NCBI GenBank assembly: GCA_037134795.1
Contig: JBAXLM010000001.1
Coordinates: forward strand, 1 to 60,981
Source: Candidatus Omnitrophota bacterium
GTDB lineage: Bacteria; Omnitrophota; Gorgyraeia; Gygaellales; Profunditerraquicolaceae
Direction: 5' to 3'
DNA: 60,981 bases
This document shows, one piece after another, positions 7,851 to 58,396 of the stretch. Numbering within the stretch: position 1 is the first letter of the stretch; each line of letters starts with the position of its first letter. Both the position numbers and the translations under genes were made by a program. The notes below the pieces were generated by a model. That model ran no database searches. It was not told where the DNA came from and was given only the letters and a program-made list of their open reading frames with translations.

Positions 7851-8798
7851 GTGGTTGGCTCGTCGTATAATTTTCAGAGGATAAGAAGTTTCTTATTTTA
7901 CTCAAGCGTATTTTTATTTATTGCGGGCTTGCCTTTTATTTTATCATTCGCTTTGGGCTATAAGTTAAATCTACGTACTAAGAAATTTGTAAAAACCGGG
8001 TTAATTTATATCAAGACTCAGCCTGAAGGGGCAAAGGTTTACCTTAATAATAAAATGATTACCCAAAAAACTCCGGTGAGCATTCAGGAACTTATCCCGG
8101 GGGCTTATAAAATTACCTTAGAATTAGCTAAGCATTATCCTTGGAAGGCCGAGGTTAATGTGGAGGAGGGTAAGGTTAGCCGTGTGGATAAGGTTATTCT
8201 CTTTCCTTTAAGGCCTAATTTAGAGCAGTTAAGCCAGGAGAGATTTTCTTCTTTTCGCCTTGATGCCCAGAATGAGGCAATTTATTATCTGGATCCGGGA
8301 AATAGGGTTGTTTATAAGTCGAATCTAGATGGGAGTAATTTTAAGGATATTGCCGGCATCCCAATGAACTTCACGGATATCAAGGGTTGGGATGTTGCAG
8401 AGGATAAAACCAAATTGTTTATTTTTAACTCTCAGCAGATTATTGTAATCTTTTTTGACGCGAAAGATAACTATGAATATTCAGATTCACCTGTAATTAT
8501 TGATTATGCGCGAGAGAAAGTTTCGACAGTTTTCTGGCATTCGGATAGCTATCATCTGGTAGTGATAACTAATAAGCATGTCGCGGTAATTGAAGCTAGG
8601 GCCGCGGCAGAGCCAGTTAATCTGGTGGATTTGGAAAAAGAAAGTAAGGTATCTTTTTATGATGGAAAGCGTGACACACTTTATTTCACCCTTCCTTATA
8701 TGAGTGGCGGGGATATTGATAGTAATCTTTATAGGCTAGAGTTGGATACCGATCTTTTTATGTTGGAAGGCTTGATGCGAGGAAAGCAAAATGAATAA
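7851..8798 (+). CDS. Membrane-anchored PEGA-domain protein
   Basis: GTG start. N-terminal TM segment. PEGA-like segment IKTQPEGAKVYLNNKMITQKTPVSIQELIPGAYKITL. The C-terminal region is uncharacterised. Confidence 0.6.
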   Translation: MVGSSYNFQRIRSFLFYSSVFLFIAGLPFILSFALGYKLNLRTKKFVKTGLIYIKTQPEGAKVYLNNKMITQKTPVSIQELIPGAYKITLELAKHYPWKAEVNVEEGKVSRVDKVILFPLRPNLEQLSQERFSSFRLDAQNEAIYYLDPGNRVVYKSNLDGSNFKDIAGIPMNFTDIKGWDVAEDKTKLFIFNSQQIIVIFFDAKDNYEYSDSPVIIDYAREKVSTVFWHSDSYHLVVITNKHVAVIEARAAAEPVNLVDLEKESKVSFYDGKRDTLYFTLPYMSGGDIDSNLYRLELDTDLFMLEGLMRGKQNE

Positions 8799-10284
8799 AG
8801 CGAAAATTCTAAAGCGTGTTTTTGAGATTATACCCGGGGGGTTATCCTGGGGTATAATTATTTCGCTTATTTTGTTATCTATTGTGTATCCGATAGCAAG
8901 CGCGATTATTATCATTACTTTTGATTTTTATTGGATTATTCGCACGGTTTACTTAACCACTCTTTTGATTATGGCTCATCACAGGCTTGCTCGCCAAAAG
9001 GGTGATAATTGGCTGAATCGCTGCATGTCTTTAGGCCAAGATAAGGGTTGGCCAGATTTATATCAGTTAGTGATATTTCCGGTTTGTAATGAGGGATTGG
9101 AAGTTTTGCGCCCATCATTAGCAGCTTTAGAGGCGATACATTATCCGAAAGAAAAGATTATTGTTGTTATGTCTTTCGAAGAAAGAAATAAATTATCAAG
9201 AGGCAACGCCTTAATTTTAGAAAAAGAGTTTAGCGATAAGTTCGGAGTTTATCTATCCACTTTTCACCCTGACGCGTTGCCTGAGGAAAGCCGCACTAAA
9301 GGCGCGAATGCTACTTGGGCAGCTAAAATTGCCAGAAGTTTTATAGATACGCGTAAAATTGCTTATAAAAATGTGCTTGTTTCATGTTTTGACGCAGACA
9401 CTTGCGTTGAGATTGAGTATTTTGGCTGCCTGAGTTACCATTTCTTAACTTCTGATAAACCACATCAGGCCAGTTATCAGCCGATGCCGGTTTATAACAA
9501 TAATATCTGGCAGGCACCGTCTTTTGCCAGATTAGTTGAAATAAGCGGTTCATTTTGTCAAATGATCGAGAGTATGCGCCTTGAAAAATTTGTGACATTT
9601 TCCAGCCATAGCATGAGCTTTAGAACTTTGGTAGAAATTAATTATTGGCCGACCAATATGATTTCTGATGACTCGGTAATTTATTGGAAAGGTTTTTTGC
9701 ATTATAACGGAGAGTATCGCGTAATTCCGTTGTACATTACAGTTTCCATGGATGTGGCATACTCTAGCAATATTTGGCGCACCATGGTTATGCAGTATAA
9801 ACAGAAAAGAAGATGGGCTTGGGGCGTAGAGAATTTTCCATTTGTAGCCTGTGGATTTTTAGAGAATAAGCATATTTCGTTACTAAAAAAGTTAAGAAGG
9901 TTGTTCCATCTTTTAGAAAGCCATGTTACTTGGGCAGTTTGGGCAGTTATTTTGGTTTTAATCGGCCCTTTGCCTATTTTTTTCGGCGGGGTATTCTTTG
10001 GCCAAACAGCCATTGCTTACAACTTGCCGAAAATTACCGGTTTACTATTTAATTTTACGTTATTAACCAGCCTTACCTGGATATTTTTAAGCCGCACAAT
10101 TTTACCGCCTCGGCCTAAAGGTATTAGCTGGTTTAAAAATGTAATTTTAGTTTTAGAATGGTGTTTTGTGCCGTTTATTATATTGGTTTTGGGGTCTACT
10201 CCCGCGCTAGATGCCCAAAGCCGCCTTATGTTTGCTAAATACATGGAATTTAATCCTACATTAAAAGGGGATAAAGTGATATAA
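8791..10284 (+). CDS. Integral-membrane family-2-like glycosyltransferase
   Basis: TM helices at both ends. Central GT-A-like region (VIFPVCNEGLEVLRPSL...HYPKEKIIVV...CFDADT). Overlaps the preceding gene by 8 nt. Confidence 0.6.
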   Translation: MNKAKILKRVFEIIPGGLSWGIIISLILLSIVYPIASAIIIITFDFYWIIRTVYLTTLLIMAHHRLARQKGDNWLNRCMSLGQDKGWPDLYQLVIFPVCNEGLEVLRPSLAALEAIHYPKEKIIVVMSFEERNKLSRGNALILEKEFSDKFGVYLSTFHPDALPEESRTKGANATWAAKIARSFIDTRKIAYKNVLVSCFDADTCVEIEYFGCLSYHFLTSDKPHQASYQPMPVYNNNIWQAPSFARLVEISGSFCQMIESMRLEKFVTFSSHSMSFRTLVEINYWPTNMISDDSVIYWKGFLHYNGEYRVIPLYITVSMDVAYSSNIWRTMVMQYKQKRRWAWGVENFPFVACGFLENKHISLLKKLRRLFHLLESHVTWAVWAVILVLIGPLPIFFGGVFFGQTAIAYNLPKITGLLFNFTLLTSLTWIFLSRTILPPRPKGISWFKNVILVLEWCFVPFIILVLGSTPALDAQSRLMFAKYMEFNPTLKGDKVI

Positions 10285-23135: not shown

Positions 23136-23190
23136 CTTGACAAATATAAAAAACTGTGTTAATTTTATAAATATCCAAGGAGGCATAAAA

Positions 23191-23739
23191 ATGAATATTG
23201 CTAGAAGTTTAGTTATTACTGTTTTTATCTTATTTATCGCCATGGGTACATTTGTTGTTTTTGCGCAAGAGACAGCTATTTTATCTCCAAATGACCTTGC
23301 GCCTGCTTCCACGTTAGAGAGTCCTGAGGATACGGAAGGGAATACACAGTGGGTTTGGGGAGAAGTAACTAATCTAGATATAAAGGCTAATACAATTACT
23401 TTAAAATACCTTGATTATGAAAATGACCAGGAGAAAGAGTTCGCTTTGGTGGTTGACGGAAATACTGCTTATGAGAATTTAAAAAGTTTTGATGAGATAA
23501 AGATTAAAGATACCTTAAGCATAGATTATAAAGTAACATCAGATGGAAAGAATCTTGCTAAAAATATAAGCCTTGAGAAGTCAGACATTCTTCCTGCTGA
23601 TGCGCAAGATTCTGCTGTTGGCAATATGCCTTTAAGCGTTCCTTTGCAGACAGCTGCTCCTATTATGGAACAGCCAATAGTGGAATCAGTTACAGCTGCA
23701 CCAGAAGTAGCACCGGTTGCTGCGCAACAAGCTCAGTAA
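23191..23739 (+). CDS. Secreted hypothetical protein
   Basis: SD GGAGG 5 nt before the ATG at 23191. Signal peptide ...VVFAQE. Pro/Ala/Gln-rich C-terminal tail. No recognisable domain. Confidence 0.5.
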   Translation: MNIARSLVITVFILFIAMGTFVVFAQETAILSPNDLAPASTLESPEDTEGNTQWVWGEVTNLDIKANTITLKYLDYENDQEKEFALVVDGNTAYENLKSFDEIKIKDTLSIDYKVTSDGKNLAKNISLEKSDILPADAQDSAVGNMPLSVPLQTAAPIMEQPIVESVTAAPEVAPVAAQQAQ

Positions 23740-24548: not shown

Positions 24549-25244
24549 TTGCGAGGTAAAGCCTTGACAGTTAGATCAATCGGTAATATATTAAAAAGCA
24601 AGGTGAAGAGAAACTTTAGGTTATTTGTCTTTGGGGTTGTTTTATTTTTGGCAGGGTGTTTTTCAACCAAGCCATGTATACAATTAGATAAGAGTTTGAT
24701 AGGGGAAGTTTTAGGGCCTTATTCCGGGCAAAAAGCGAAAATAGCGGTTAGCGATTTTGAATTGAAAACATCCGGAGCTAACGCACAGGCCGGGTTGGCT
24801 TTAAAAGATGCTTTTATCAGCATATTAAATAATTCTCAGCGTTTTTTAATCGTTTCTTTGTCTGATGCGGATTTAATTATTAACGTTAATATTAATGAAT
24901 TTGTTCCGGAAAGCTCCGGTGGTAAATCCGGAATAGGCGGAGGCGGTAGCGGGCAAAGTAATTTTATGGGAGGTTTATTGAGCCCAACTTTGAGTAAATC
25001 CAATATGCAGTTAGGTTTACGTATTATTGACCACGCTAGCTCAAGTGTAATAAGTAACCGGGATATCTACAGCCAGGTATCACAGATTCCCGGTCATAAA
25101 ATAAAAATTCCTCGTGTTATGGTTTTTAAGGCAGGCTTAAGTATGTACGCGGACACTCCTATGGGAAAAGTAATTTATGATTGCCTACTTGAGGCAACAC
25201 GTTATATCGCGCAAAATGTACCATTGAATTACTACAAAAATTAA
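24549..25244 (+). CDS. CsgG-family-like outer-membrane lipoprotein
   Basis: Lipobox LAGCFS. Blocks align by eye with CsgG: KIAVSDFELKTSG..AGLALKDAFISILNNSQRFLIVS, a Gly-rich SGGKSGIGGGGSG, and LGLRIIDHASSSVIS. The start is uncertain (TTG at 24549 or GTG near 24603). Confidence 0.55.
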   Translation: MRGKALTVRSIGNILKSKVKRNFRLFVFGVVLFLAGCFSTKPCIQLDKSLIGEVLGPYSGQKAKIAVSDFELKTSGANAQAGLALKDAFISILNNSQRFLIVSLSDADLIINVNINEFVPESSGGKSGIGGGGSGQSNFMGGLLSPTLSKSNMQLGLRIIDHASSSVISNRDIYSQVSQIPGHKIKIPRVMVFKAGLSMYADTPMGKVIYDCLLEATRYIAQNVPLNYYKN

Positions 25245-36409: not shown

Positions 36410-36805
36410 ATGAAATTGATAACCAGGAATACGGATTACGCGTTACGCGCGCTTTGTTATATTGCCAAACAAGATAAATCAAAAGTAAGCGCAGAAGAAT
36501 TGGTTAATAAGCTTGGAGTGCCGCAGCCGTTTATGCGTAAGATTTTGCAGTTATTAAGTAAAAATAAAGTGCTGGAGTCTTCCAAAGGCCAAAACGGCGG
36601 ATTTAAATTACGCATTCCTGCTGGGAAAATTTATTTATTCAAGATAATGCGCATTTTTCAAGGTGAAGTAGTTTTAAACGCATGTTTCTTAAAAAAGAAT
36701 ATCTGCCCTAACAAAGGTAAGTGTGTCTTAAGAGATAAAATAAAAAGTATCGAGAATGATGTATTCAGGCAACTTAAGGCAATTAATATCGCTTCATTGC
36801 TATGA
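36410..36805 (+). CDS. Rrf2-family transcriptional regulator with three-Cys cluster-binding motif (NsrR/IscR-like)
   Basis: N-terminal wHTH (TRNTDYALRALCYIA...) and a C-x6-C-x5-C motif (CFLKKNICPNKGKC). Confidence 0.85.
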   Translation: MKLITRNTDYALRALCYIAKQDKSKVSAEELVNKLGVPQPFMRKILQLLSKNKVLESSKGQNGGFKLRIPAGKIYLFKIMRIFQGEVVLNACFLKKNICPNKGKCVLRDKIKSIENDVFRQLKAINIASLL

Positions 36806-36835: not shown

Positions 36836-38125
36836 ATGTTTTGCTATCAGTGTGAACAGACAGCGGGTGGAAGTGGTTGCACAAAACTTGGCGTTTGCGG
36901 CAAGAATGAAGATATCCAGAGCCTTCAGGATACTCTTTTATACGGTTTAAAAGGCATTGCGGCGTATGCTTATCATGCCCGGGAACTTGGTGTCCATGAA
37001 GAAGAGGTGGATGCGTTTATGCATGAGGCACTTTTTAAAACCGTGACTAATGTTAGCTTTGATTTAAACCAGTATCTGGATTTAGTTTTAAAATGCGGAG
37101 CAGTTAATTTAAAAACTATGGAGGTGCTGGATAGGGTACATACGCAAAAATTTGGCAATCCTGTTCCTACCGCGGTTGAAACCGGAACCAAAGCTGGGCC
37201 TGGTATTTTAGTTACCGGGCATGATTTACTTGATCTTTATGAGTTACTTAAACAAACCGAAGGAAGCGGAGTAAATGTTTATACGCATAGCGAGATGCTT
37301 CCTGCGCATGGATATCCTGAGCTTAAGAAATTTAAACATTTAGTAGGTAATTATGGCGGTGCTTGGCAGGAGCAGAAGAAAGAGTTTAATGCTTTTAGTG
37401 GCGCGTTGCTTGCTACGACTAACTGTATATTAATCCCTCCGGAAAGTACTTATCTAAATAGGTTATTTACTATAGGTATTACTGGTGTGCCGGGCGCAAC
37501 GCATTTAAAATCCAGGGATTTTAAAGCTTTAATTGAAAAAGCTAAATCTTTACCGCCTTTACCTGAAGCATCCGGTAAAAAGATCTGGACAGGTTTTCAT
37601 CACACAGCAATTTTAGGTTTAGCTGATAAAATTGTTAGTTTAGTTAAGCAAGGTAAGATTAAACATTTCTTTTTAATCGGCGGTTGTGATGGAGCTAAGC
37701 CCGGTAGAAATTATTATACTGAGTTTGCCGAAAAAGTACCTAAGGATTGTGTAATTCTTACACTTGCTTGCGGAAAATACCGGTTTAACAAACTGGATTT
37801 CGGTGATATTGAAGGAATTCCTAGGTTAATTGATTTAGGCCAGTGTAACAATGCTTATTCTGCGGTTCAGGTAGCGGTAGCTTTAGCTAAGGCGTTTAAC
37901 TGCACGGTAAATGAATTGCCTTTAACTTTAGTGCTATCTTGGTTTGAGCAAAAAGCAATTGCCATTCTGCTTACTTTGCTGTATCTTAATATTAAAGGAA
38001 TTTATATCGGCCCGACACCGCCGGCTTTTCTATCCAGAAATGTTTTTGCTGTTCTGCAAGATAAATTCGACTTAAAGTTAGTCAGTACGCCAGGCGAGGA
38101 TTTAAAGAAAATATTAAAAAAATAG
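36836..38125 (+). CDS. hcp: Hybrid cluster protein (hydroxylamine/NO reductase), short class
   Basis: MFCYQCEQTAGGSGCTKLGVCGK N-terminal cluster motif, then GGCDG, LACGKYRF and LGQCNNAYS. 429 aa. Confidence 0.9.
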   Translation: MFCYQCEQTAGGSGCTKLGVCGKNEDIQSLQDTLLYGLKGIAAYAYHARELGVHEEEVDAFMHEALFKTVTNVSFDLNQYLDLVLKCGAVNLKTMEVLDRVHTQKFGNPVPTAVETGTKAGPGILVTGHDLLDLYELLKQTEGSGVNVYTHSEMLPAHGYPELKKFKHLVGNYGGAWQEQKKEFNAFSGALLATTNCILIPPESTYLNRLFTIGITGVPGATHLKSRDFKALIEKAKSLPPLPEASGKKIWTGFHHTAILGLADKIVSLVKQGKIKHFFLIGGCDGAKPGRNYYTEFAEKVPKDCVILTLACGKYRFNKLDFGDIEGIPRLIDLGQCNNAYSAVQVAVALAKAFNCTVNELPLTLVLSWFEQKAIAILLTLLYLNIKGIYIGPTPPAFLSRNVFAVLQDKFDLKLVSTPGEDLKKILKK

Positions 38126-38138
38126 CGGGGAGGTAAAC

Positions 38139-38534
38139 ATGGCAGATTTAAAAGACCTATTGCAGAGCGCGGATTGGAAAACTGAAAAACATGTTCCGGT
38201 TATTGATGCGCCGGAGAAAATAAAAAAGGGTGAGGTTCTAAAACTAGAAGTAAGCGTGGGCAAGCAGATAGCCCATCCTAATACTACTGAGCATCATATT
38301 AAGTCTATTGAGGTATATTTTTTGGCAGCGGGTGAAAAATTCCCTTATCAGGTGGCCCGTTTTGAATTTAACACACACGGCGAATCTGTCCAGGGGCCGA
38401 ATACTAGTACGATATTTTCCGAGCCAAAAGTAACCACATCTTTTAAAACTGAAAAAAGTGGCCTGATTATGGCTACATCCTATTGCAATATCCATGGTAT
38501 TTGGAAAAGTGAAAAGGAAATTAAAATAGAATAA
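38139..38534 (+). CDS. Superoxide reductase (neelaredoxin-type, 1Fe-SOR)
   Basis: EKHVPVI, HPNTTEHHI and CNIHGIW iron-ligand motifs. 131 aa with no desulforedoxin domain. Confidence 0.85.
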   Translation: MADLKDLLQSADWKTEKHVPVIDAPEKIKKGEVLKLEVSVGKQIAHPNTTEHHIKSIEVYFLAAGEKFPYQVARFEFNTHGESVQGPNTSTIFSEPKVTTSFKTEKSGLIMATSYCNIHGIWKSEKEIKIE

Positions 38535-38562
38535 AAGATAGAACTTAAAAGAGGAGGTAAAT

Positions 38563-38865
38563 ATGTGTTGTATGTCAAAGATCTCGTCAATAATAGCTGT
38601 TATTCCAATCGCGCTTCTTCTGGCTTTGAGTTTTTTTGTTTTGTTATCAATTAATAAAGCGCAGACAAAAGTATTAAAGATTTTTGGTTATGCAGTTGCT
38701 GTTATCTTATGGTTAGCTGTTGCAACGATTATTTTAGGTGGAGTCTATGGGTTAGCTAAAGGCGGTGATAAGGCAAAATGCATGATGCAGAAAAAGATGA
38801 TGATGCAGAATGCCCAGGGAATGCCAGGAATGCTACCGGAACAGAAGGTTGGAAAGGGGAATTAA
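38563..38865 (+). CDS. Small two-TM membrane protein with a Met-rich C-terminal tail
   Basis: SD GAGGAGG 5 nt upstream. The tail is [23 protein letters not shown]. The stop overlaps the rubredoxin start. Confidence 0.5.
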
Positions 38866-39026
38866 TGAGTAAATATAAATGCTTAGTTTGCGGCTATATC
38901 TACTATCCTAGTGCGGGTGATCCAGAGAATGGAATTGCTCCGGGGACAAGTTTTGAAGATTTACCAAATACTTGGGTTTGCCCTGAATGCGGCGTAGGCA
39001 AAGATCAATTTGAAAAAATAGTTTAA
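38865..39026 (+). CDS. Rubredoxin
   Basis: A 53-aa protein, [13 protein letters not shown]...WVCPECG, with two CxxC motifs. The ATG overlaps the upstream TAA. The longer ORF-track start at 38778 was rejected. Confidence 0.9.
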
Positions 39027-39068
39027 AGGTTTTAACGCACATTAGGGCCTGCTTAAGGCTTAAAATAT

Positions 39069-39773
39069 ATGCCCGCGGAAATCAAAGCTAAAATAAAAGA
39101 AGTTATCCAGCGTAACTATAACGTGAAGAGTTTTCGCTTGGAGATTACTGATACATTAGATTTTAAAGCCGGGCAATTCCTTTCTGTTACGCTGGATAAC
39201 GATCCTAAACTAAAAAGATATCTTTCGATATCTAACTCTCCTACTGAAAAAGGTTATCTTGAGTTTACCAAGAAAATAACTCAGAGTGATTTTTCGCGAA
39301 TGCTTAATAGTTTAAAAACTAATGATCAGGTAACTATCCAATATCCTTTTGGAAAATTTGTTTTAGATGAGAGCGCGCGTAAAATTGCTTTTTTATCCGG
39401 GGGTATAGGTATAACTCCTATTAGAAGTATCTCCAAATATGTTGTGGATAAGAAATTAGGGATAGAGATCGTATTAATTTATTCTAACCGCACTGCAGGC
39501 GATATTGTTTTTAAAGATGATTTTGATGCTATGGCGAATGAGTATCCGCTTTTAAGGGTAGCGCATGTATTGTCTGTTGCTGAAGCAAATTTTAAATGTA
39601 CTGTTGGCCGTATTAATAGCGAGGTTATAAAAAACGAAATTCCGGATTACCAACAAAGAAAGTTTTATCTTTGTGGCCCGCCTCAGATGGTGGAGGCAAT
39701 GCGCAAAATACTGGCGGAAGATTTAAATTTGCCGACAGAAAAAATAGTTACAGAAAACTTTCAAGGTTATTAG
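39069..39773 (+). CDS. FNR-like FAD/NAD(P)-binding oxidoreductase (candidate NAD(P)H:rubredoxin reductase)
   Basis: RYLSISN (RxYS FAD motif), GGIGITP (NAD-binding) and CGPPQM. 234 aa with no Fe-S domain. Confidence 0.7.
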   Translation: MPAEIKAKIKEVIQRNYNVKSFRLEITDTLDFKAGQFLSVTLDNDPKLKRYLSISNSPTEKGYLEFTKKITQSDFSRMLNSLKTNDQVTIQYPFGKFVLDESARKIAFLSGGIGITPIRSISKYVVDKKLGIEIVLIYSNRTAGDIVFKDDFDAMANEYPLLRVAHVLSVAEANFKCTVGRINSEVIKNEIPDYQQRKFYLCGPPQMVEAMRKILAEDLNLPTEKIVTENFQGY

Positions 39774-39784
39774 GGGGTAAAGTT

Positions 39785-40975
39785 ATGGCTGCCATACAAA
39801 TATTACCTGGAATATATTCAGTAGGTGTGGTGGATTGGAATGTACGTAATTTCCACGGGCACACCTATACTACGGCCAGGGGTTCTTCTTATAACGCCTA
39901 TCTTATTATCGATGAGAAGGTCGCTCTTATCGATACTGTTTATGGCCCGTTTGCCCAAGAATTAATCTCAAATATTAAAGAAATCATCCCTCTTGAAAAA
40001 ATAGATTATATTATCGCTAATCATGTTGAAACAGACCACTCAGGAGCTTTGCCCAGCCTTATGCCGCTTTGCCCGAAGGCTAAGATTTTGGGCACGGCTA
40101 AATGCAAAGAAGGGCTGTATAAACATTATTACCAGAACTGGGATTTTCAGGTTGTTAAAACTAACGATACGCTAAAATTAGGCAAGCGTACGCTTAGTTT
40201 TATTGAGGCGCCGATGATCCATTGGCCGGATAGCATGTTTACGTATTCTGCTAGCGATGCTCTGCTTATGCCTAATGATGCTTTTGGCCAGCATTTTGCA
40301 GCGAGCGAAAGATTTGATGATCAGGTTGATCAATGCAGCTTGATGGAAGAGGCAGAAAAATATTACGCCAATATCCTTTGGCCTTTAGGATCGGTAATCT
40401 TAAAAAAAATCGAAGAGGTTAAAAATTTAAATATCCCGATTAAAATAATTGCACCCAGCCATGGGATTATCTGGCGTAAAGATCCGGGTAAGATAATTAA
40501 TGCTTATGTTTCCTGGGCTAAAGGAGAAACTAAAAATAAAGTGGTTATTGTTTATGAAACTATGTGGGGCGCGACTGCTCAGATGGCTAGAAAAATTGCT
40601 GAGGGCCTTACTGCTTCGCAAGTAGAGGTTAAGCTTTATAATGTGGCTGAAAGTGATCGCACCGAGATAATTACGCAGATGTTATCCGCTAAAGGTTTTT
40701 TATTTGGATCTTCTACGCACGACAATGATATGTTGCCTAACATTGCCGCATTCTTAGAGATAGTTAAAGGTTTAAAAGCCAAGGGGAGACTGGTGAGTTT
40801 TTTTGGCTCTTTCGGCTGGGGTGGCGGAGCAGTTAAGGAGATGTCTGAGATGCTTAAGGATAGCGGTGTGGATTTAAATCAACTTGCGGGGATATCTTTC
40901 AAATATGTTCCTGATAAAAACGAATTAAAAAGCTGTTTTGAATTTGGAAGTAATTTTGCTAAGCTCTTGAAATAG
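39785..40975 (+). CDS. Flavodiiron protein (rubredoxin:oxygen/NO oxidoreductase, FprA/ROO type)
   Basis: Metallo-beta-lactamase-like diiron motif NHVETDHSG plus a C-terminal flavodoxin domain (VVIVYETMWGAT...). The ATG at 39785 is preceded by GGGGG. Confidence 0.9.
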   Translation: MAAIQILPGIYSVGVVDWNVRNFHGHTYTTARGSSYNAYLIIDEKVALIDTVYGPFAQELISNIKEIIPLEKIDYIIANHVETDHSGALPSLMPLCPKAKILGTAKCKEGLYKHYYQNWDFQVVKTNDTLKLGKRTLSFIEAPMIHWPDSMFTYSASDALLMPNDAFGQHFAASERFDDQVDQCSLMEEAEKYYANILWPLGSVILKKIEEVKNLNIPIKIIAPSHGIIWRKDPGKIINAYVSWAKGETKNKVVIVYETMWGATAQMARKIAEGLTASQVEVKLYNVAESDRTEIITQMLSAKGFLFGSSTHDNDMLPNIAAFLEIVKGLKAKGRLVSFFGSFGWGGGAVKEMSEMLKDSGVDLNQLAGISFKYVPDKNELKSCFEFGSNFAKLLK

Positions 40976-40986
40976 GGCAAAATAAA

Positions 40987-41466
40987 ATGCAGCAAATTCC
41001 GACTCAAGTCATCGATTTTTTAAGTGCCCAAAGTTTTGTGATTGTTTCTTCTTTGGATAAAAACGGATTTCCCCATAGTTCCTGCAAGAATATAGTTAAG
41101 CTTGACCCTCTAGGGGAAGTTTATCTGATTGATGTTTATAGCGGTATAACCGGGGAGAATATAAAGCGTAATTCCCAGGTAAGTATCAGCGCTGTTGACG
41201 AGCATAAATTTGCAGGTTTTTGCCTGAAAGGTAAAGCTAAAATTTTACCCGATGACCATCTCAGCCAGGAGATTATCAAATCCTGGGAAGATAATATTAC
41301 ATCGCGGTTAACTCAAAGGCTCCTGAGGAATTTAGCTCAAGATAAAGCCCATAATCATCATCCGGAAGCTAGCCTGCCAAAACCAAAACATCTTATTATT
41401 ATGGAAGTAGAAGAGATAATTGATCTTGCTCCATATCATTTAAGAAAGAAAGGCATAGATGGCTAA
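40987..41466 (+). CDS. Pyridoxamine 5'-phosphate oxidase-like FMN-binding split-barrel protein
   Basis: 159 aa. The pattern FVIVSSLDKNGFPHSSCK...YLIDVYSG...NS is typical of the PNPOx-like family. Confidence 0.6.
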   Translation: MQQIPTQVIDFLSAQSFVIVSSLDKNGFPHSSCKNIVKLDPLGEVYLIDVYSGITGENIKRNSQVSISAVDEHKFAGFCLKGKAKILPDDHLSQEIIKSWEDNITSRLTQRLLRNLAQDKAHNHHPEASLPKPKHLIIMEVEEIIDLAPYHLRKKGIDG

Positions 41467-46828: not shown

Positions 46829-46837
46829 GATATTTAG

Positions 46838-46865
46838 TTGACAGTTAGGGAAAATAATGTAAAAT
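46838..46865 (+). promoter_or_regulatory. Near-consensus promoter TTGACA-16-TAAAAT, about 130 nt upstream of the cold-shock gene
   Basis: TTGACA at 46838-43 and TAAAAT at 46860-65. A second -10 TATAAT lies at 46963-68, closer to the gene. Confidence 0.5.
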
Positions 46866-46901
46866 TATCTCTGTAGTTAGCAAGGGAGTAGAAGTCTTTA
46901 C

Positions 46902-46939
46902 CCGTAAGGAGAGAGAATAACACACCTTACGGTTTTTTT
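46902..46939 (+). terminator. Intrinsic terminator between the TonB receptor gene and csp, or an attenuator within a long csp leader
   Basis: CCGTAAGG (46902-09) pairs with CCTTACGG (46925-32) around a 15-nt loop, followed by TTTTTTT (46933-39). Confidence 0.65.
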
Positions 46940-46994
46940 ATTAATCTAGCCCCTTAAGCTGCTATAATTTTCCTGAAAGGAGGAAACAAAGCAA

Positions 46995-47195
46995 ATGGCA
47001 AAAGGTAAAGTAAAGTGGTTTTCCAATCAAAAGGGTTATGGTTTTATTACTCCTGAGAACGGTGCTGATGTATTCGTACATCATACTGCGATCCAGGGTG
47101 ATGGCTATAAAACTTTAGAGGAGGGCCAGGAAGTTGAGTTTGAAATTGAAAAAGGTCCTAAAGGTGAACAAGCTACTAAAGTAGTGAAGTTATAA
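46995..47195 (+). CDS. cspA: Cold-shock protein (CspA family)
   Basis: 66 aa. RNP1 KGYGFI and RNP2 VFVHH. SD AAAGGAGG. Confidence 0.95.
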
Positions 47196-47216
47196 CCTAA
47201 CAGGAACAAAGCATCA

Positions 47217-47257
47217 ATGGGGATGGTTCTATTTAGGATCGTCCCCATTTTCTTTTT
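47217..47257 (+). terminator. Intrinsic terminator after csp
   Basis: ATGGGGA (47217-23) pairs with TCCCCAT (47242-48), followed by TTTCTTTTT. Confidence 0.65.
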
Positions 47258-47290
47258 ATTAGCTTTAGGCATTATGTTATAATAAAGGCC

Positions 47291-53841: not shown

Positions 53842-53878
53842 AGAGAATCCTAACAATTATGTTGGGATTCTCTTTTTT
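53842..53878 (+). terminator. Intrinsic terminator
   Basis: AGAGAATCC (53842-50) pairs with GGATTCTCT (53865-73), followed by TTTTT. Confidence 0.7.
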
Positions 53879-53882
53879 ACAA

Positions 53883-53891
53883 TGGTATAAT
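53883..53891 (+). promoter_or_regulatory. Extended -10 promoter TGgTATAAT, ending 10 nt before the GH1 start codon
   Basis: TG at 53883-84, TATAAT at 53886-91, and the ATG at 53902. No SD. Confidence 0.5.
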
Positions 53892-53901
53892 ATAAACTAA
53901 T

Positions 53902-55119
53902 ATGGCAAATTTACCGCATGATTTTCTTTGTGGCGCAGCAACTTCGGCGCATCAGGTTGAAGGAGATAATATTCATAATGACTGGTGGGCTGCTGAGCAG
54001 AATGGCGCTTTAAAAGAGGCTTCTGGATGCGCTTGCCGCCATTATGAGCAATATAGCCAAGATTTTGCAATCGCCCAAGAGCTAAGCCATAATTGCCATC
54101 GTTTTTCTATAGAGTGGAGCCGCATTGAGCCCAAAGAGGGTATTTTCGACGCAGCTGCAATTGAACATTATCGTAAAGTTATCAGGGATTTGAGAAGCCG
54201 AGGAATCCAACCAGTAGTTACTTTGCTTCATTTTACTAACCCAGCTTGGTTTGCTCAGAAAGGCGGATGGGTAAAGTTTAAACTTAGGAAATATTTCCTG
54301 CGTTTTGTAGAAACAGTAGTAAAGGAATATGCTCATGAGGTGAAATTCTGGATTACTATAAATGAACCACTAGTTTATTCTTCGCATTCGTATTTATTGG
54401 GGGCTTGGCCTCCTAAGAAATGTTCATTATTTCAAACCGCTAAAGTAACGCTTAATTTAGCAGAAGCACATATTAAAGCCTACCATATCATCCATAAAAT
54501 TTATCAAGATAGGTCTTTAACAAAACCTTTTGTGTCTATCGCGGCAAATCTACAGGCATTTGAGATCTGCCAGCCGACAATAAAAAATAGGGTAGCTTTT
54601 TATTTACGGCATAAATTGTATAATCTTTATTTTATTGAACGGCTTTTACATTTTCGCACCCTGGATTACATAGGGATAAATTATTATGGCAGGAATTTGG
54701 TGCATGTAGAAGATTGGAGTTTAAGGAGTTTGTTGCTTGCTACCTGTAAATATAATCACCACCCATTACGCAAGAACTCCTTGGGTTGGGATATCTACCC
54801 GGAGGGCCTGTATAAACTTTTATTATTTTTTAAAAAATATCATCTACCGATTATAATTACTGAAAATGGCATTTGTACTAATGATGATGATTTAAGATGG
54901 GATTATATCCGTGAGCATTTACTGCAGGTGCATAAGGCAATGCAGGAGGGGGTTAAGGTAATCGGGTATATTTATTGGTCATTGATTGATAATTTTGAGT
55001 GGGATAAAGGTTTCACCCCACGTTTTGGCTTGGTAGATGTAGATTACCGTAGCCAGCAGCGTATAATTAGGCAAAGTGCAAGAAAATTGGCGGAAGTTTT
55101 TAAGACCAAAATAATTTAA
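53902..55119 (+). CDS. Glycoside hydrolase family 1 (beta-glucosidase-like)
   Basis: GAATSAHQVEG. Acid/base TINEP and nucleophile ITENG. C-terminal YWSLIDNFEW. Confidence 0.9.
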   Translation: MANLPHDFLCGAATSAHQVEGDNIHNDWWAAEQNGALKEASGCACRHYEQYSQDFAIAQELSHNCHRFSIEWSRIEPKEGIFDAAAIEHYRKVIRDLRSRGIQPVVTLLHFTNPAWFAQKGGWVKFKLRKYFLRFVETVVKEYAHEVKFWITINEPLVYSSHSYLLGAWPPKKCSLFQTAKVTLNLAEAHIKAYHIIHKIYQDRSLTKPFVSIAANLQAFEICQPTIKNRVAFYLRHKLYNLYFIERLLHFRTLDYIGINYYGRNLVHVEDWSLRSLLLATCKYNHHPLRKNSLGWDIYPEGLYKLLLFFKKYHLPIIITENGICTNDDDLRWDYIREHLLQVHKAMQEGVKVIGYIYWSLIDNFEWDKGFTPRFGLVDVDYRSQQRIIRQSARKLAEVFKTKII

Positions 55120-55120
55120 T

Positions 55121-57133
55121 ATGGACTATAAAGATAAAGAGTTTGTTATAAAAGAATTGCCATTTTTTGCTGGGGTTAGCAAAGCGCAGCTGGCAGCAAT
55201 TAATGCCAAAAGCGAGATTGTTGAATACCGTAAGGGCCAGTTGATTTATAAAGAAGGTTCTGCTCCGAGTGCTTTTTATTGCATTATCTCTGGGCGCGTG
55301 CAGATTTATATAAAAGATAACGCAGGCGAGTGTCTTGTTTTAGAGTATTTGCATCGCGGAAAATATTTTGGGATTATTTCTTTGCTTACAAGCGAGCCGC
55401 ATTCAGTTAGTAGCGAGGCGATAAATGATTGCACAATTCTAGTTATCAAGAAAGATAATTTTGATTTTCTGTTAAAGAGTATTCCTCGTCTGGCTATTGA
55501 TTTAAGCCGTACATTAAGCCGCCGTCTTAAGCGTAAAGATATACATCAGAAGAGAATATTTGAGAGTACGGTTATTTCAGTTTTTAGTTCCTATTCTCAA
55601 TCGGGTAAGACTACCTATGCCTTAAATCTTGCGCTTAGCCTTAATCGCGAGACACATAAATCAGTGATCATACTGGATATCTTGCCTCAAGATAAGACGC
55701 ACACATTACCGCATAAGTTAGCGCTGGATGTGCCGGCTGCGCTGAATCTATCTTCTCAAGCTGAGATTCGTACTTTACCACAGGATTTTATTTCTAAAAG
55801 TAAATTTGGCGTTGATCTTTTTTGTTTTTATTATTCCGAAGATGATTCTGCTTGTTTGAAGAGGTTAATTGAAATAATCAGTTTTTTAGTCAATGATTAT
55901 CATTATATTATTTTAGATTTGCCCGCGGCTATGGATCGGGCGATTATCAGCATGCTTAATCAGTCTGATTTGATCCATATATTAAGTAGCCCAGAGGCTG
56001 TGGATTTAAAGCGTACCAATAATCTGATTAGCCGGCTTAAGAGGGATTTTAATTTTGATGCCCAAAAGATAAAAACAATTATAAATGAATATAAGTTAGC
56101 CAGGATTAATTATAGCGATCAGTTAGACATTTTAGGGCAGGAAATTTTTGCTACCATTCCGAGAATAGGCTTTAATGCAGCAGAGCGTTTAATTATTGAT
56201 CAGCCGGATTGTGAATATTCTAAGGCTGTCAGAAGGATCGCCCGGCAACTTGGCGATTGTTTGGTGGGCTTGGTTCTGGGTGTAGGCGTGGGGTATGGAT
56301 TTTGTCATGTAGGCGTATTAAAAGTTATCGAAGAAGAAAATATTCCCATTGATATTATTGCGGGTTCAAGTATTGGTGCGCTTATTGCCAGTCTTTGGGC
56401 TATAGGTAAAAGTAGTAAAGAGATTTTAGAGATTACCCGGGAATTTAAAGAGCCTAAACATATTTGGGGGCTGATTGATATGACTTTTCCCCGGCTGGGT
56501 TTTATTAAGGGCAATAAGTTTTATCGTTTCTTAAGAAAGCATTTAGGTAGTAAAACATTTTATGATGTAAAATTGCCTTTAAAGATAATTGCCAGTGATG
56601 TGCGCAAAAAAGAGCCGAGAATTTTAGACAAAGGCCTCTTAGTTGATGCTATAATGGCTAGTTGTTCAATGCCAGGTATATTTGCTCCCTTTAAATTCAA
56701 AGGAGAGATGCTTCTTGATGGCGGGGTGACTTATCCGTTGCCAACTGAGCCGTTATTAAAGATGGGAGTGAGGAAAATTATTGCTGTAAATGTAACTCCT
56801 TCGCGGGAAGATATCTTGAACCAAGTGCAAAGGTTAAAAAATAACCTTTCTTCTGAAACGAAAGAAAGTGTCCCGAAAAATAAACCGTTTGATTTATTAG
56901 GCCGTTTAAAAAGTATTTTTAACTTAAACATAGTGGATATTATTTTTAGTAGTGTTGAGGTGTTGCAATCTGAAGTAGCTAGGCGTGAGGGTGAGCTAGC
57001 GGATATTGTATTACATCCGGATACTTCTGGTTTATTTTGGTTGGAATTGCATAAGGCTGATGAGTTTGCTCGCAGGGGTGAGGTTGAGGCGCGTAAAAAC
57101 TTAGATAAAATTTGGCAATTGATTAATGAATAG
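55121..57133 (+). CDS. Three-domain protein: cyclic-nucleotide-binding domain, MinD/ParA-like domain with degenerate P-loop, and patatin-like phospholipase
   Basis: Residues 10-130 are Crp/cNMP-like (FFAGV...GKYFGIISLL). Residues 150-375 are MinD-like (VISVFSSYSQSGKTT, YIILDLP). Residues 385-560 are patatin (GVGVGYG, G-S-S417-I-G, D533-G-G). Confidence 0.8.
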   Translation: MDYKDKEFVIKELPFFAGVSKAQLAAINAKSEIVEYRKGQLIYKEGSAPSAFYCIISGRVQIYIKDNAGECLVLEYLHRGKYFGIISLLTSEPHSVSSEAINDCTILVIKKDNFDFLLKSIPRLAIDLSRTLSRRLKRKDIHQKRIFESTVISVFSSYSQSGKTTYALNLALSLNRETHKSVIILDILPQDKTHTLPHKLALDVPAALNLSSQAEIRTLPQDFISKSKFGVDLFCFYYSEDDSACLKRLIEIISFLVNDYHYIILDLPAAMDRAIISMLNQSDLIHILSSPEAVDLKRTNNLISRLKRDFNFDAQKIKTIINEYKLARINYSDQLDILGQEIFATIPRIGFNAAERLIIDQPDCEYSKAVRRIARQLGDCLVGLVLGVGVGYGFCHVGVLKVIEEENIPIDIIAGSSIGALIASLWAIGKSSKEILEITREFKEPKHIWGLIDMTFPRLGFIKGNKFYRFLRKHLGSKTFYDVKLPLKIIASDVRKKEPRILDKGLLVDAIMASCSMPGIFAPFKFKGEMLLDGGVTYPLPTEPLLKMGVRKIIAVNVTPSREDILNQVQRLKNNLSSETKESVPKNKPFDLLGRLKSIFNLNIVDIIFSSVEVLQSEVARREGELADIVLHPDTSGLFWLELHKADEFARRGEVEARKNLDKIWQLINE

Positions 57134-57146
57134 GCGAGGAGGGATA

Positions 57147-57629
57147 ATGAAAAGAAGTATGTGTTTTGTTCTAACTACTACCTGCTGTCTGCTAGCTACT
57201 GTTTTTTTCGGGTGTGCGGCAGTTAAAGAAATGGGCAAGGGTTTTGTCGGGGTATCAACTGAGGTTTTAGAATCTAAACGTAAAGATTCCCTGAAGAAGT
57301 CTTTTGCTTTAGACTATAATAATTGCTATAAAGAGGTAAAAGAGTTGTTAAAAGGAAAAGAAATACAAGCAGGGAATGGAATACAAGCAGAGAATGAGCC
57401 TTATATCTATGCAGAGGACCTTAACAAAAAGATGATTGCGCTCTATCTTTCACAGATAGATACAGCGCCGGTAGGGATATTTTTTACTGAGGAAGCAAAA
57501 AATAAAACTTTAATTGAGGTATCCAGTCCGAGCAGCTATGCTAAGGAGCTTATTGCTAAGAAGATCTTTGCCGGAATTGATGTATTAATTAATCCAAAGA
57601 TTAAGGAGAATAAAATTAATGTTAAATAA
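57147..57629 (+). CDS. Lipoprotein of unknown function
   Basis: SD GGAGGG before the ATG at 57147. Lipobox FFGCAA. Contains an 18-nt tandem duplication (57363-57398). Confidence 0.5.
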   Translation: MKRSMCFVLTTTCCLLATVFFGCAAVKEMGKGFVGVSTEVLESKRKDSLKKSFALDYNNCYKEVKELLKGKEIQAGNGIQAENEPYIYAEDLNKKMIALYLSQIDTAPVGIFFTEEAKNKTLIEVSSPSSYAKELIAKKIFAGIDVLINPKIKENKINVK

Positions 57630-57927
57630 AAAACCGGCGATTAATGATTTAATTAAAGAGTGCCATCGTATTGCCAAAAGCAAAGGTTGGTGGATAGATG
57701 AGCGTAATGACGGAGAATTGATAGCGCTTATGCATTCAGAGTTATCTGAGGCCTTAGAGGCAATGCGCAATCACAGGGATAAGGGCGAGCTAGCTGAGGA
57801 GCTAGCTGATTGTTGTATCCGCATATTTGATTATTGCGGCTCTCGTAAAATTGATCTGGAAAAGGCGCTATTAAAAAAAATAGAATATAATAAGACGCGG
57901 CCATACCGTCACGGAAAGAAGTTCTAA
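57619..57927 (+). CDS. MazG-like nucleoside triphosphate pyrophosphohydrolase (small all-alpha NTP-PPase)
   Basis: 102 aa. Metal-binding pattern HSELSEALEA ... AEELADCCIR (E..E ... E..D). Overlaps the upstream gene by 11 nt. Confidence 0.7.
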   Translation: MLNKKPAINDLIKECHRIAKSKGWWIDERNDGELIALMHSELSEALEAMRNHRDKGELAEELADCCIRIFDYCGSRKIDLEKALLKKIEYNKTRPYRHGKKF

Positions 57928-57936
57928 GGAGGAATT

Positions 57937-58170
57937 ATGCCATACGATAGCAATTTGGATGCGCAGGTTTTTAGTAGGTTTTGGGAGAATGATGCAGGCA
58001 AAGTTGTAGTAAGCGTTTATTCTTATAATAACGGCCCTAAGAAAATTCAAATAGTTCGCGAGATTAAGGATAGAAATGGCGAGTATGCCTTTGCAAAACT
58101 TGGGCGGTTAATAAAAGAAGAAGCTGAAGGTATATTACCGTTGATTCAAGAAGCGCTTAAAGCTATGTAG
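57937..58170 (+). CDS. PC4/YdbC-like putative ssDNA-binding protein
   Basis: 77 aa. VVVSVYSYNNGPKKIQIVRE...AKLGRLIKEEAEGILPLIQEAL mirrors the YdbC pattern (beta-sheet segment, then a G.. T/L.EE...L C-terminal helix). Confidence 0.45.
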   Translation: MPYDSNLDAQVFSRFWENDAGKVVVSVYSYNNGPKKIQIVREIKDRNGEYAFAKLGRLIKEEAEGILPLIQEALKAM

Positions 58171-58253
58171 GAATTATGGTTGTGGGTAATTTTTGTTTTT
58201 CTTCTTTTCTTTTTAGGGAATTTGTGTACAATATAGCAAGTGTGAAAACTTTA

Positions 58254-58325
58254 GCCGAGGTAGCTCAGTGGTAGAGCGCGGCCCTGAAAAGGCCGGCGTG
58301 GGAAGTTCGATTCTTCTCCTCGGCA
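58254..58325 (+). tRNA. tRNA-Phe (anticodon GAA), CCA not encoded
   Basis: Manual cloverleaf: acceptor GCCGAGG/CCTCGGC, D arm GCTC-AGTGGTA-GAGC, anticodon arm CGGCC-CTGAAAA-GGCCG, T arm GGAAG-TTCGATT-CTTCT, discriminator A. Confidence 0.93.
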
Positions 58326-58333
58326 TTTTATAA

Positions 58334-58363
58334 AAAGAGGGGGTTTTATAACCCCTCTTTTTT
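58334..58363 (+). terminator. Intrinsic terminator after tRNA-Phe
   Basis: AAAGAGGGG (58334-42) pairs with CCCCTCTTT (58352-60), followed by TTT. Confidence 0.75.
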
Positions 58364-58396
58364 ATTGTATTTAGGCGTAATTTACTCAAAATAAAG

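Follow-up and report, generated by a model that had tools for sequence, protein, structure and literature searches.

What do five closely packed genes do in an uncultured bacterium when their predicted products, a glycosidase, a patatin lipase, a lipoprotein, and two small nucleotide- or nucleic-acid-related proteins, belong to no familiar pathway? The genes lie in a 60,981-nucleotide (nt) stretch of DNA from Candidatus Omnitrophota bacterium (assembly GCA_037134795.1, contig JBAXLM010000001.1, positions 1 to 60,981), which we refer to as the window. An initial annotation had grouped them into one operon and proposed two readings, either glycolipid or membrane remodeling or an antiphage module. 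We find, with confidence only slightly better than even, that the cluster is best explained as a housekeeping unit for lipid or glycolipid turnover. Its core would be the GH1 β-glycosidase, the lipase, and the lipoprotein, with the last two genes carried along as passengers.

We began by asking whether the genes form a unit at all. The five open reading frames (ORFs) are located where the initial annotation placed them, and the gaps of 1, 13, −11, and 9 nt were reproduced. This tight packing is not distinctive, because 56 of the 63 ORFs in the window are on the plus strand and the median same-strand gap across the whole window is 11 nt (20 nt or less in 33 of 52 gaps). A stronger indication is found at the 5′ end of the cluster. 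Two arms, AGAGAATCCTAACA and TGTTGGGATTCTCT, form a hairpin at 53843-53874 that is followed by a T-run. This terminator ends the preceding gene, which encodes a peptidoglycan-binding lipoprotein. The terminator scan missed the hairpin; the same scan called a promoter that overlaps it. The 3′ arm (TGTTGGGAT), within which the −35-like sequence TTGGGA lies, hardly varies, and the 5′ arm shows changes compatible with G-U pairing. We observed the same overlap between the upstream gene's terminator and the cluster's promoter in the window (53843-53891), in locus L003 (4722-4793), and in 48 other loci. The ATG of the GH1 gene lies 10 nt past the end of the −10 element, which predicts a leader of about 3 to 4 nt and a nearly leaderless mRNA. 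The extended −10 promoter with almost no leader that had been proposed for the cluster is thus present, and its layout is kept in 50 aligned loci; in related loci, TGnTATAAT is at least 90% conserved and stands 5 to 11 nt ahead of the ATG.

The hairpin itself also appears to be maintained. In the 50-locus alignment, its positions are paired in 95.3% of cells, with compensatory changes in 6 of the 14 pairs. None of 500 shuffles reached the observed values, and slid registers were only 48 to 60% paired. Eight inner pairs belonged to the search pattern by which the sequences were collected, leaving the outer six as the unbiased test; these six hold most of the covariation. We also weighed an operator for a protein, for instance a CRP-type site near −41, as the function of the palindrome. 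We rejected this as the main reading because sequence changes preserve RNA pairing by way of G-U wobbles and compensation in the outer pairs, the hairpin is followed by a T-run, and its conserved 3′ arm also supplies the −35 element. A sequence-specific operator may nevertheless be a second role for the palindrome. The combined terminator-promoter element occurs once per locus of approximately 14 kb, and in three loci that lack GH1 (L038, L058, and L080) it stands directly before the lipase gene. Because the element is conserved, single copy, and moves to the lipase gene where GH1 is missing, we regard the transcription unit and its boundaries as real. The proposal of one compact unit under one promoter is borne out to this extent, and the five genes are, as predicted from these features, a single transcription unit. 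Both of the hairpins that had been proposed to flank it are present, but the downstream one sits after the tRNA-Phe gene and not after the last ORF.

We then turned to the proteins, beginning with the lipase. The initial annotation described the 670-amino-acid (aa) protein as a cyclic nucleoside monophosphate (cNMP)-binding domain joined to a patatin domain. Both domains were matched, but a third domain had gone unreported, a ParA/MinD-like P-loop domain between the two. The protein has no transmembrane segment and is predicted to be cytoplasmic. Its patatin domain scores 106.6 bits against a cutoff of 27.7, and the catalytic dyad, formed by the serine of GSSIG and the aspartate of DGG, is intact; neither residue varies across 50 diverse family members. 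The oxyanion-hole motif GGxR/K was not found, the corresponding window sequence being GVGVGYG, and Arg or Lys appears there only in the most distant members. The P-loop domain scores just above the cutoffs of two Pfam families (28.8 versus 27 bits for AAA_31 and 26.7 versus 25.4 for CbiA). Its Walker A sequence, SSYSQSGKT, includes GKT but lacks the signature Lys of the ParA/MinD motif KGGxGK[ST]. GK[ST] is found in only about 11 of the 50 family members and is invariant in the close clade.

Whether the lipase could be gated by a cyclic nucleotide depends on its sensor domain, which scores 71.3 bits against a PF00027 cutoff of 27.5 and aligns with the domains of PKG, PKA, and CRP. In a canonical phosphate-binding cassette, a Glu contacts the ribose 2′-OH and an Arg contacts the cyclic phosphate. 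The cassette of the lipase reads FGIISLLTSEPHS where PKG, PKA, and CRP have FGE...RS, and when FGIISLLTSEPHSVS is aligned to the PKG sequence FGE...PRSAT, Ile85 takes the place of the Glu and His94 that of the Arg. The Arg position is occupied by His in 44 of the 50 family members, and Arg is retained in only 4 distant ones. The segment surrounding the cassette is invariant in the close clade, so a ligand pocket is probably maintained, although hardly one that binds cAMP or cGMP in the canonical way. Thus, the description of the lipase as cNMP gated is correct as to the fold, but the gating is doubtful because both canonical contacts have been replaced.

Several known lipases resemble this protein in part. 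NTE/PNPLA6-type enzymes and bacterial "NTE family" esterases, such as Rv2565 of Mycobacterium tuberculosis, combine a cNMP-binding domain with a patatin domain. Rv2565 is listed in PMC10865251. The lipase described here similarly places a cNMP-binding-type domain at its N terminus, ahead of a patatin domain with a Ser-Asp dyad, may by analogy act in lipid deacylation, and has orthologues labeled "NTE family protein" by JGI. It differs from these enzymes in the P-loop domain of approximately 200 aa between sensor and patatin, in its single sensor domain with the Arg-to-His replacement, in the absence of a transmembrane segment, and in its occurrence, so far, only in the Omnitrophota. The best NCBIfam match is to RssA (NF007623; 1.3e-32; residues 382-669). 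Escherichia coli RssA/YchK is likewise the best curated match of the patatin half, and both are cytoplasmic, housekeeping-type patatins; however, the score is 113 bits against an equivalog cutoff of 272, and RssA has neither sensor nor P-loop domain. We found no paper on this family, or on the order sensor, ParA-like domain, patatin, in the literature searched. Judged by its domains, the lipase is an undescribed variant of the NTE/RssA-type lipases that has so far been seen only in the Omnitrophota.

We then looked at distant relatives of the lipase. An exhaustive search among cluster representatives yielded more than 100 full-length three-domain proteins at 26 to 43% identity, and all four distant members that are named to phylum belong to the Omnitrophota. 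Fatty acid β-oxidation genes lie downstream on the same strand in 11 of 26 distant loci and upstream in two further loci; the fullest sets comprise a thiolase, a 3-hydroxyacyl-coenzyme A (CoA) dehydrogenase, an enoyl-CoA hydratase, an acyl-CoA synthetase, and a lysophospholipase-type α/β hydrolase. No counterpart of the lipoprotein, the MazG-like protein, or the 77-aa protein was found beside distant lipase homologues in a search with profile hidden Markov models. The recurrent link to fatty acid activation and oxidation is the strongest clue to what the lipase does. Two other arrangements were seen in this distant group. In L082 (1944-3404), an AsmA/YhdP-like gene shares 11 nt with the beginning of the gene for a lipase homologue of 42% identity; AsmA/YhdP-like proteins act in lipid transport between membranes. 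Genes in the order PilZ-YajQ-PilZ, both being cyclic di-GMP-binding protein families, are often located upstream of the distant lipase/β-oxidation operon (L087, 3635-5611; L093, 4479-6257; L104, 4538-6255; L081, 6384-7799), which hints at cyclic di-GMP control of lipid catabolism in distant Omnitrophota.

The glycosidase, too, resembles a protein with an affinity for hydrophobic substrates. It matches PF00232 at 2.4e-83 (280.5 bits) and lacks a signal peptide; its score for the canonical BGL equivalog TIGR03356 is under the cutoff (278.8 versus 478.5 bits). Its closest solved relative is PDB 1vff (4.4e-90 over the full length), which is BGPh, the membrane-associated GH1 β-glycosidase of Pyrococcus horikoshii. 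The NEP acid/base and TENG nucleophile motifs are both present and align with those of 1vff, and the two proteins are similarly short (405 aa here and 423 aa for BGPh). BGPh is membrane associated and prefers long-chain alkyl glucosides, and a BGPh homologue hydrolyzes steryl glucosides (PMC4687101). By these similarities, the window enzyme is a member of a short, BGPh-like subgroup of GH1, with the difference that BGPh is archaeal and hyperthermophilic.

The third core protein carries the lipobox ...FFGC, whose cysteine is Cys23, and Gly22-Cys23 is conserved in at least 90% of its orthologues. An earlier start, at the in-frame ATG at 57126, was rejected, as the N termini of the orthologues do not support it. 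PF12092 (DUF3568) is matched by 24 of 67 orthologues (best, 4.9e-6), and a PDB profile search with the protein gave no match. An AlphaFold2 model with a predicted local distance difference test (pLDDT) score of 76.6 shows a predicted Bet v1-like α+β fold; its top Foldseek match is Francisella tularensis Flpp3 (6pny; E 2.3e-3; probability 1.00), followed by matches to KA1, START, and Bet v1 types. A Bet v1-like fold and a possible internal cavity have been described for Flpp3, also a small lipoprotein (PMC12236611). The window protein is therefore modeled as a DUF3568/Flpp3-like lipoprotein with a Bet v1-like fold; the match is informative about fold, not about mechanism.

The last two genes encode proteins of a different kind. 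The label of MazG-like holds, but in Pfam only barely: PF03819 is matched at 22.8 bits against a cutoff of 22.0, and the better support is a match to phrog_3301 at 1.5e-33. The metal-binding motifs ExxE and EExxD (HSELSEALE and AEELAD) are conserved in 65 orthologues, and orthologues are 75 to 93% identical, consistent with an all-α NTP pyrophosphohydrolase. Relatives at less than 60% identity occur in 401 phage records, and the small MazG-like family is widespread. The 77-aa protein had been called a PC4-like single-stranded-DNA-binding protein, a label that finds weak support at the level of fold and no family assignment by sequence. It has no Pfam, NCBIfam, PHROG, or PDB sequence match; 43 orthologues gave no Pfam match at E values up to 10, PF02229 included; the PDB profile search returned no PC4 chain; tblastn against phages gave nothing convincing; and no sequence-level relative was found beyond its own orthologues. 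Matches to MEF2/MADS proteins (E of ~0.1) were judged to be chance, and an hhalign comparison with human PC4 gave an E value of 0.27. The AlphaFold2 model (pLDDT 87.9) has four β strands and a C-terminal helix, as in the Whirly-like PC4, YdbC, and Pur-α proteins. Its top Foldseek match is the phage T5 PC4 homologue 4bg7 (E 0.076; probability 0.97; template modeling [TM] scores of 0.42 and 0.35) and Borrelia Pur-α is also among the top matches, with no match at an E value of 0.001 or less and TM scores of 0.35 to 0.52. On this model, the protein is possibly a PC4/Pur-α-like nucleic acid binder, in contrast to PC4 and YdbC proteins in lacking a sequence match to PF02229 or to PDB chains.

We next assessed how well the cluster is conserved. 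A scan of one genome per species gave 190 stretches with a lipase relative; 80 were fetched, with lipases 62 to 98% identical to that of the window. Loci below 70% identity (62 to 69%) are termed divergent and those at 70% or more close, and counts are drawn only from loci with enough flanking sequence. The top 120 lipase protein clusters are 66 to 100% identical and 611 to 726 aa long (all but one, 662 to 726 aa), and the clusters among them that are named to phylum are Candidatus Omnitrophota. A core of the genes does travel together: it co-occurs across at least 80 species-level genomes, and the 80 fetched loci are collinear. At 70% identity and above, however, this synteny says nothing about function, because the entire stretch is collinear: it includes ribokinase-like, YqeY, MFS, peptidoglycan-binding lipoprotein, GH1, lipase, lipoprotein, MazG, 77-aa, and NSS transporter genes. 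More can be learned from the divergent loci, where the lipoprotein gene follows the lipase gene in 41 of 41 cases (35 of 35 in close loci). GH1 is present in 31 of 35 divergent loci, MazG in 32 of 40, and the peptidoglycan-binding lipoprotein in 32 of 35, compared with 20 of 26 for the NSS transporter, 21 of 29 for MFS, 5 of 28 for YqeY, and 5 of 27 for the ribokinase-like gene. Lipase and lipoprotein are the only invariant pair, with GH1 and MazG found in most loci. The 77-aa gene, which had been counted as a linked member, is found in 14 of 38 divergent loci and is thus retained no better than the neighboring transporter genes. In L085, where the lipase is 53% identical, the order peptidoglycan-binding lipoprotein, GH1, lipase is still kept.

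The downstream boundary differs among these relatives. In most of them, tRNA-Phe is separated from the cluster by genes for a 522-aa NSS/SNF-type sodium symporter and a 134-aa lipoprotein (L003, 9055-11146; L053, 8744-10312), and both genes are absent from the window (58171-58253), L025, and L077, which indicates a lineage-specific deletion. The cluster therefore abuts tRNA-Phe here because these two genes were lost, and not because an island was inserted; the tRNA adjacency that had been mentioned with the defense reading is not an island signature. The unit was inherited vertically within one Omnitrophota lineage. In the 62 to 66% clade, other genes separate MazG from the 77-aa gene (L061, 8819-9875; L043, 8911-9558; L079, 3565-4026; L035, 8746-9237); read by eye, they encode a YjeF_N-like NAD(P)HX epimerase, a 4HBT (YbgC-like) acyl-CoA thioesterase, and a hydrogenase-maturation-protease-like protein. 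One metagenome-assembled genome, JAKLQX01 (bin S2.101), has two syntenic copies of the locus, L001 and L014, with lipases 98% and 79% identical to that of the window; most likely, the bin mixes two related populations.

These observations led us to the following model for the unit. Transcription would start from the extended −10 promoter and give a nearly leaderless mRNA. The lipase would be a cytoplasmic, patatin-type acyl hydrolase that deacylates membrane lipids under the regulation of its two N-terminal domains, the cNMP-binding-like sensor with its noncanonical pocket and the ParA/MinD-like P-loop domain; in other Omnitrophota, the fatty acids released would feed the adjacent β-oxidation operon. 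The BGPh-type GH1 would remove a β-linked hexose from a hydrophobic aglycone, and the exported Flpp3/Bet v1-like lipoprotein may bind or shuttle a lipid in the envelope. Together, the three would turn over or remodel a glycolipid or phospholipid; both the substrates and the coupling of the three proteins are what we infer from fold, family, and context. The MazG-like and 77-aa proteins would probably be cotranscribed passengers with housekeeping roles in nucleotide or nucleic acid metabolism. This model agrees with the lipid reading first put forward, in which GH1 takes off a sugar head group and the patatin deacylates, and the BGPh-type GH1, the Flpp3/Bet v1-like lipoprotein, and the β-oxidation contexts all fit it. 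Several points weigh against it. The synteny of the close clade extends to unrelated ribokinase-like, YqeY, MFS, and NSS transporter genes, and in the divergent clade the peptidoglycan-binding lipoprotein, NSS, and MFS genes persist at about the same frequency as GH1 and MazG. Adjacency alone is weak evidence of shared function when unrelated neighbors are retained about as well. There is no β-oxidation gene in the 61-kb window, and our view of the aglycone preference of GH1 relies on a distant homologue from an archaeon. The Flpp3-like label is based on borderline scores (Foldseek E of ~2e-3), Flpp3 has no known ligand, and the window lipoprotein itself has no significant Pfam match. Finally, the MazG-like gene overlaps the lipoprotein gene by 11 nt, which suggests translational coupling, so that it may be more than a passenger.

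Alternatively, the five genes could be a mixed operon of unrelated housekeeping genes packed together by a compact, strand-biased genome, in which GH1, lipase, and lipoprotein do not cooperate. The strand bias and short gaps of the window would be expected in this case, as would a syntenic block reaching to the MFS, YqeY, ribokinase-like, and NSS transporter genes, the unrelated genes found after MazG in some lineages, and the loss of GH1 from 4 of 35 divergent loci. Such an operon does not explain why the lipoprotein gene follows the lipase gene without exception in the divergent loci, why GH1 is kept at 53% identity despite a different remaining context, or why the promoter element tracks the lipase gene. 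Three lines of evidence, each independent of the others, also suggest that GH1, the lipase, and the lipoprotein act on lipids or other hydrophobic substrates. We regard this explanation as unlikely, if by no means negligible. A narrower alternative is that lipase and lipoprotein serve envelope phospholipid homeostasis only, in the manner of AsmA-like or Mla proteins, and that GH1 is an unrelated enzyme of sugar metabolism. It is in line with the overlapping AsmA-like gene in L082, with the lipase-lipoprotein pair as the sole invariant one, and with RssA as the best NCBIfam match. We find it rather improbable, given that GH1 is of the membrane-associated BGPh type, persists in most divergent loci and at 53% identity, and lies 1 nt from the lipase gene in the window, with comparably tight spacing in many close relatives. 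We also considered a more speculative extension of the lipid turnover model, to which we give little credence. Here, a ligand other than cAMP or cGMP would gate the lipase by way of its altered pocket, in which the Arg has given way to a conserved His, with the ParA/MinD-like domain as a membrane assembly switch, and the lipase, GH1, and lipoprotein would dismantle lipids or glycolipids that host-dependent, ultra-small Omnitrophota acquire from other cells, MazG being tied to the nucleotide signal.

The remaining explanation is an antiphage or abortive infection module in which a nucleotide signal activates the patatin to destroy the membrane while the MazG-like and PC4-like proteins act on phage nucleotides or DNA. 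Patatin and cNMP-like domains are indeed known from defense effectors, the former from CapV of CBASS and the latter from Pycsar effectors, and the idea of a nucleotide-activated membrane lipase is common to these systems. PADLOC matched the five proteins to a phospholipase effector (3.4e-10) and to the cNMP part of PycTIR (2.7e-7), the MazG-like protein has its relatives in phage records, and the top fold match of the 77-aa protein is from phage T5. These PADLOC matches stay at the level of domains, and neither PADLOC nor the NCBIfam and PHROG scans assigned the five proteins to a defense system. With the CBASS lipase model NF041079, the score is 18.5 bits where 200 are required, and with the DS2_1 phospholipase model it is 23.7 where 400 are. 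No CD-NTase or cyclase was found in the five genes, their neighbors, or ten other window ORFs, the remaining ORFs being read by eye, and the conserved flanks of the 80 loci (MFS, peptidoglycan-binding lipoprotein, NSS, and tRNA genes) contain no CD-NTase. The earlier statement that the window has no cyclase or CD-NTase thus stands for the 18 ORFs scanned with Pfam, and the rest were judged by eye to be housekeeping genes (SecA, PrfB, MurJ, UvrC, Lnt, Hcp, NifS, BirA, MnmA, NadA, and others). As for Pycsar, no cyclase was found, PycTIR matches the cNMP-like part alone, and the Arg and Glu contacts of the binding pocket are absent. No integrase was seen in the flanks that were read, and no relative was found among IMG/VR viral contigs. 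In all 80 fetched loci, the cluster is found at the same place in the chromosome, surrounded by housekeeping genes; it is vertically inherited and not mobile, which is the opposite of patchy, island-borne defense systems, and distant homologues of the lipase sit in β-oxidation operons. Together with the origin of the tRNA adjacency in gene loss, these findings make the defense reading highly improbable. The coordinates of the cluster and its associated features are collected in Table 1.

Table 1. Positions of the five genes, the lipase domains, and the flanking elements in the window
Feature	Window position	Strand	Lipase residues	Basis or remark
Intrinsic terminator, 14-bp stem, loop ATTA, plus T-run	53843-53880	+		sequence; kept in 50 loci
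Promoter, TTGGGA-18 nt-extended −10 TGGTATAAT	53862-53891	+		promoter scan; conservation
GH1 β-glycosidase, 405 aa	53902-55119	+		ORF list; PF00232
Three-domain lipase, 670 aa	55121-57133	+		ORF list; Pfam
cNMP-binding-like domain	55220-55477		34-119	PF00027, 6.6e-20
ParA/MinD-like P-loop domain (AAA_31/CbiA)	55568-56164		150-348	Pfam
Patatin domain	56270-56755		384-545	PF01734, 2.4e-30
Lipoprotein, DUF3568/Flpp3-like (predicted)	57147-57629	+		ORF list; orthologue Pfam matches; fold search
MazG-like protein, 102 aa	57619-57927	+		ORF list; PF03819; phrog_3301
77-aa protein	57937-58170	+		ORF list; predicted fold
tRNA-Phe (GAA), conserved downstream neighbor	58254-58325	+		Rfam scan
Terminator hairpin GGGGGTTTTATAACCCCT plus T-run, 3′ of tRNA	58339-58364	+		hairpin at 58339-58356

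Several other features of the window were also noted. The tRNA is the sole Rfam match. Two regions, 38866-39670 (805 nt) and 46829-47290 (462 nt), are free of ORFs of at least 70 aa and of Rfam matches; the rest is tightly packed. The region 36836-41466 reads by eye as an anaerobe's oxidative and nitrosative stress cluster, with a hybrid-cluster protein and desulfoferrodoxin-like, flavodiiron, and pyridoxamine-oxidase-like proteins, and an Rrf2-type regulator is encoded just upstream (36410-36805). Three ORFs have no Pfam family at an E value of 1e-5 or less: 8791-10284 (497 aa), which resembles a membrane glycosyltransferase by eye, 23137-23739 (200 aa), and 24549-25244 (231 aa).

The results presented above carry a caution for the reading of similar loci. 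Where a patatin domain, a cNMP-type domain, and a MazG-like protein occur together, conservation and ligand-binding residues should be checked before the locus is called a defense system. In practical terms this is a modest result, as the analysis demonstrates no new mechanism. Omnitrophota are uncultured and often ultra-small, and their physiology is inferred from genomes alone. In this phylum, the contexts of the lipase gene, β-oxidation operons in some lineages and a glycosidase and lipoprotein here, point to lipid turnover, and the lipase family together with these contexts provides a testable entry point into how Omnitrophota handle their membrane lipids.

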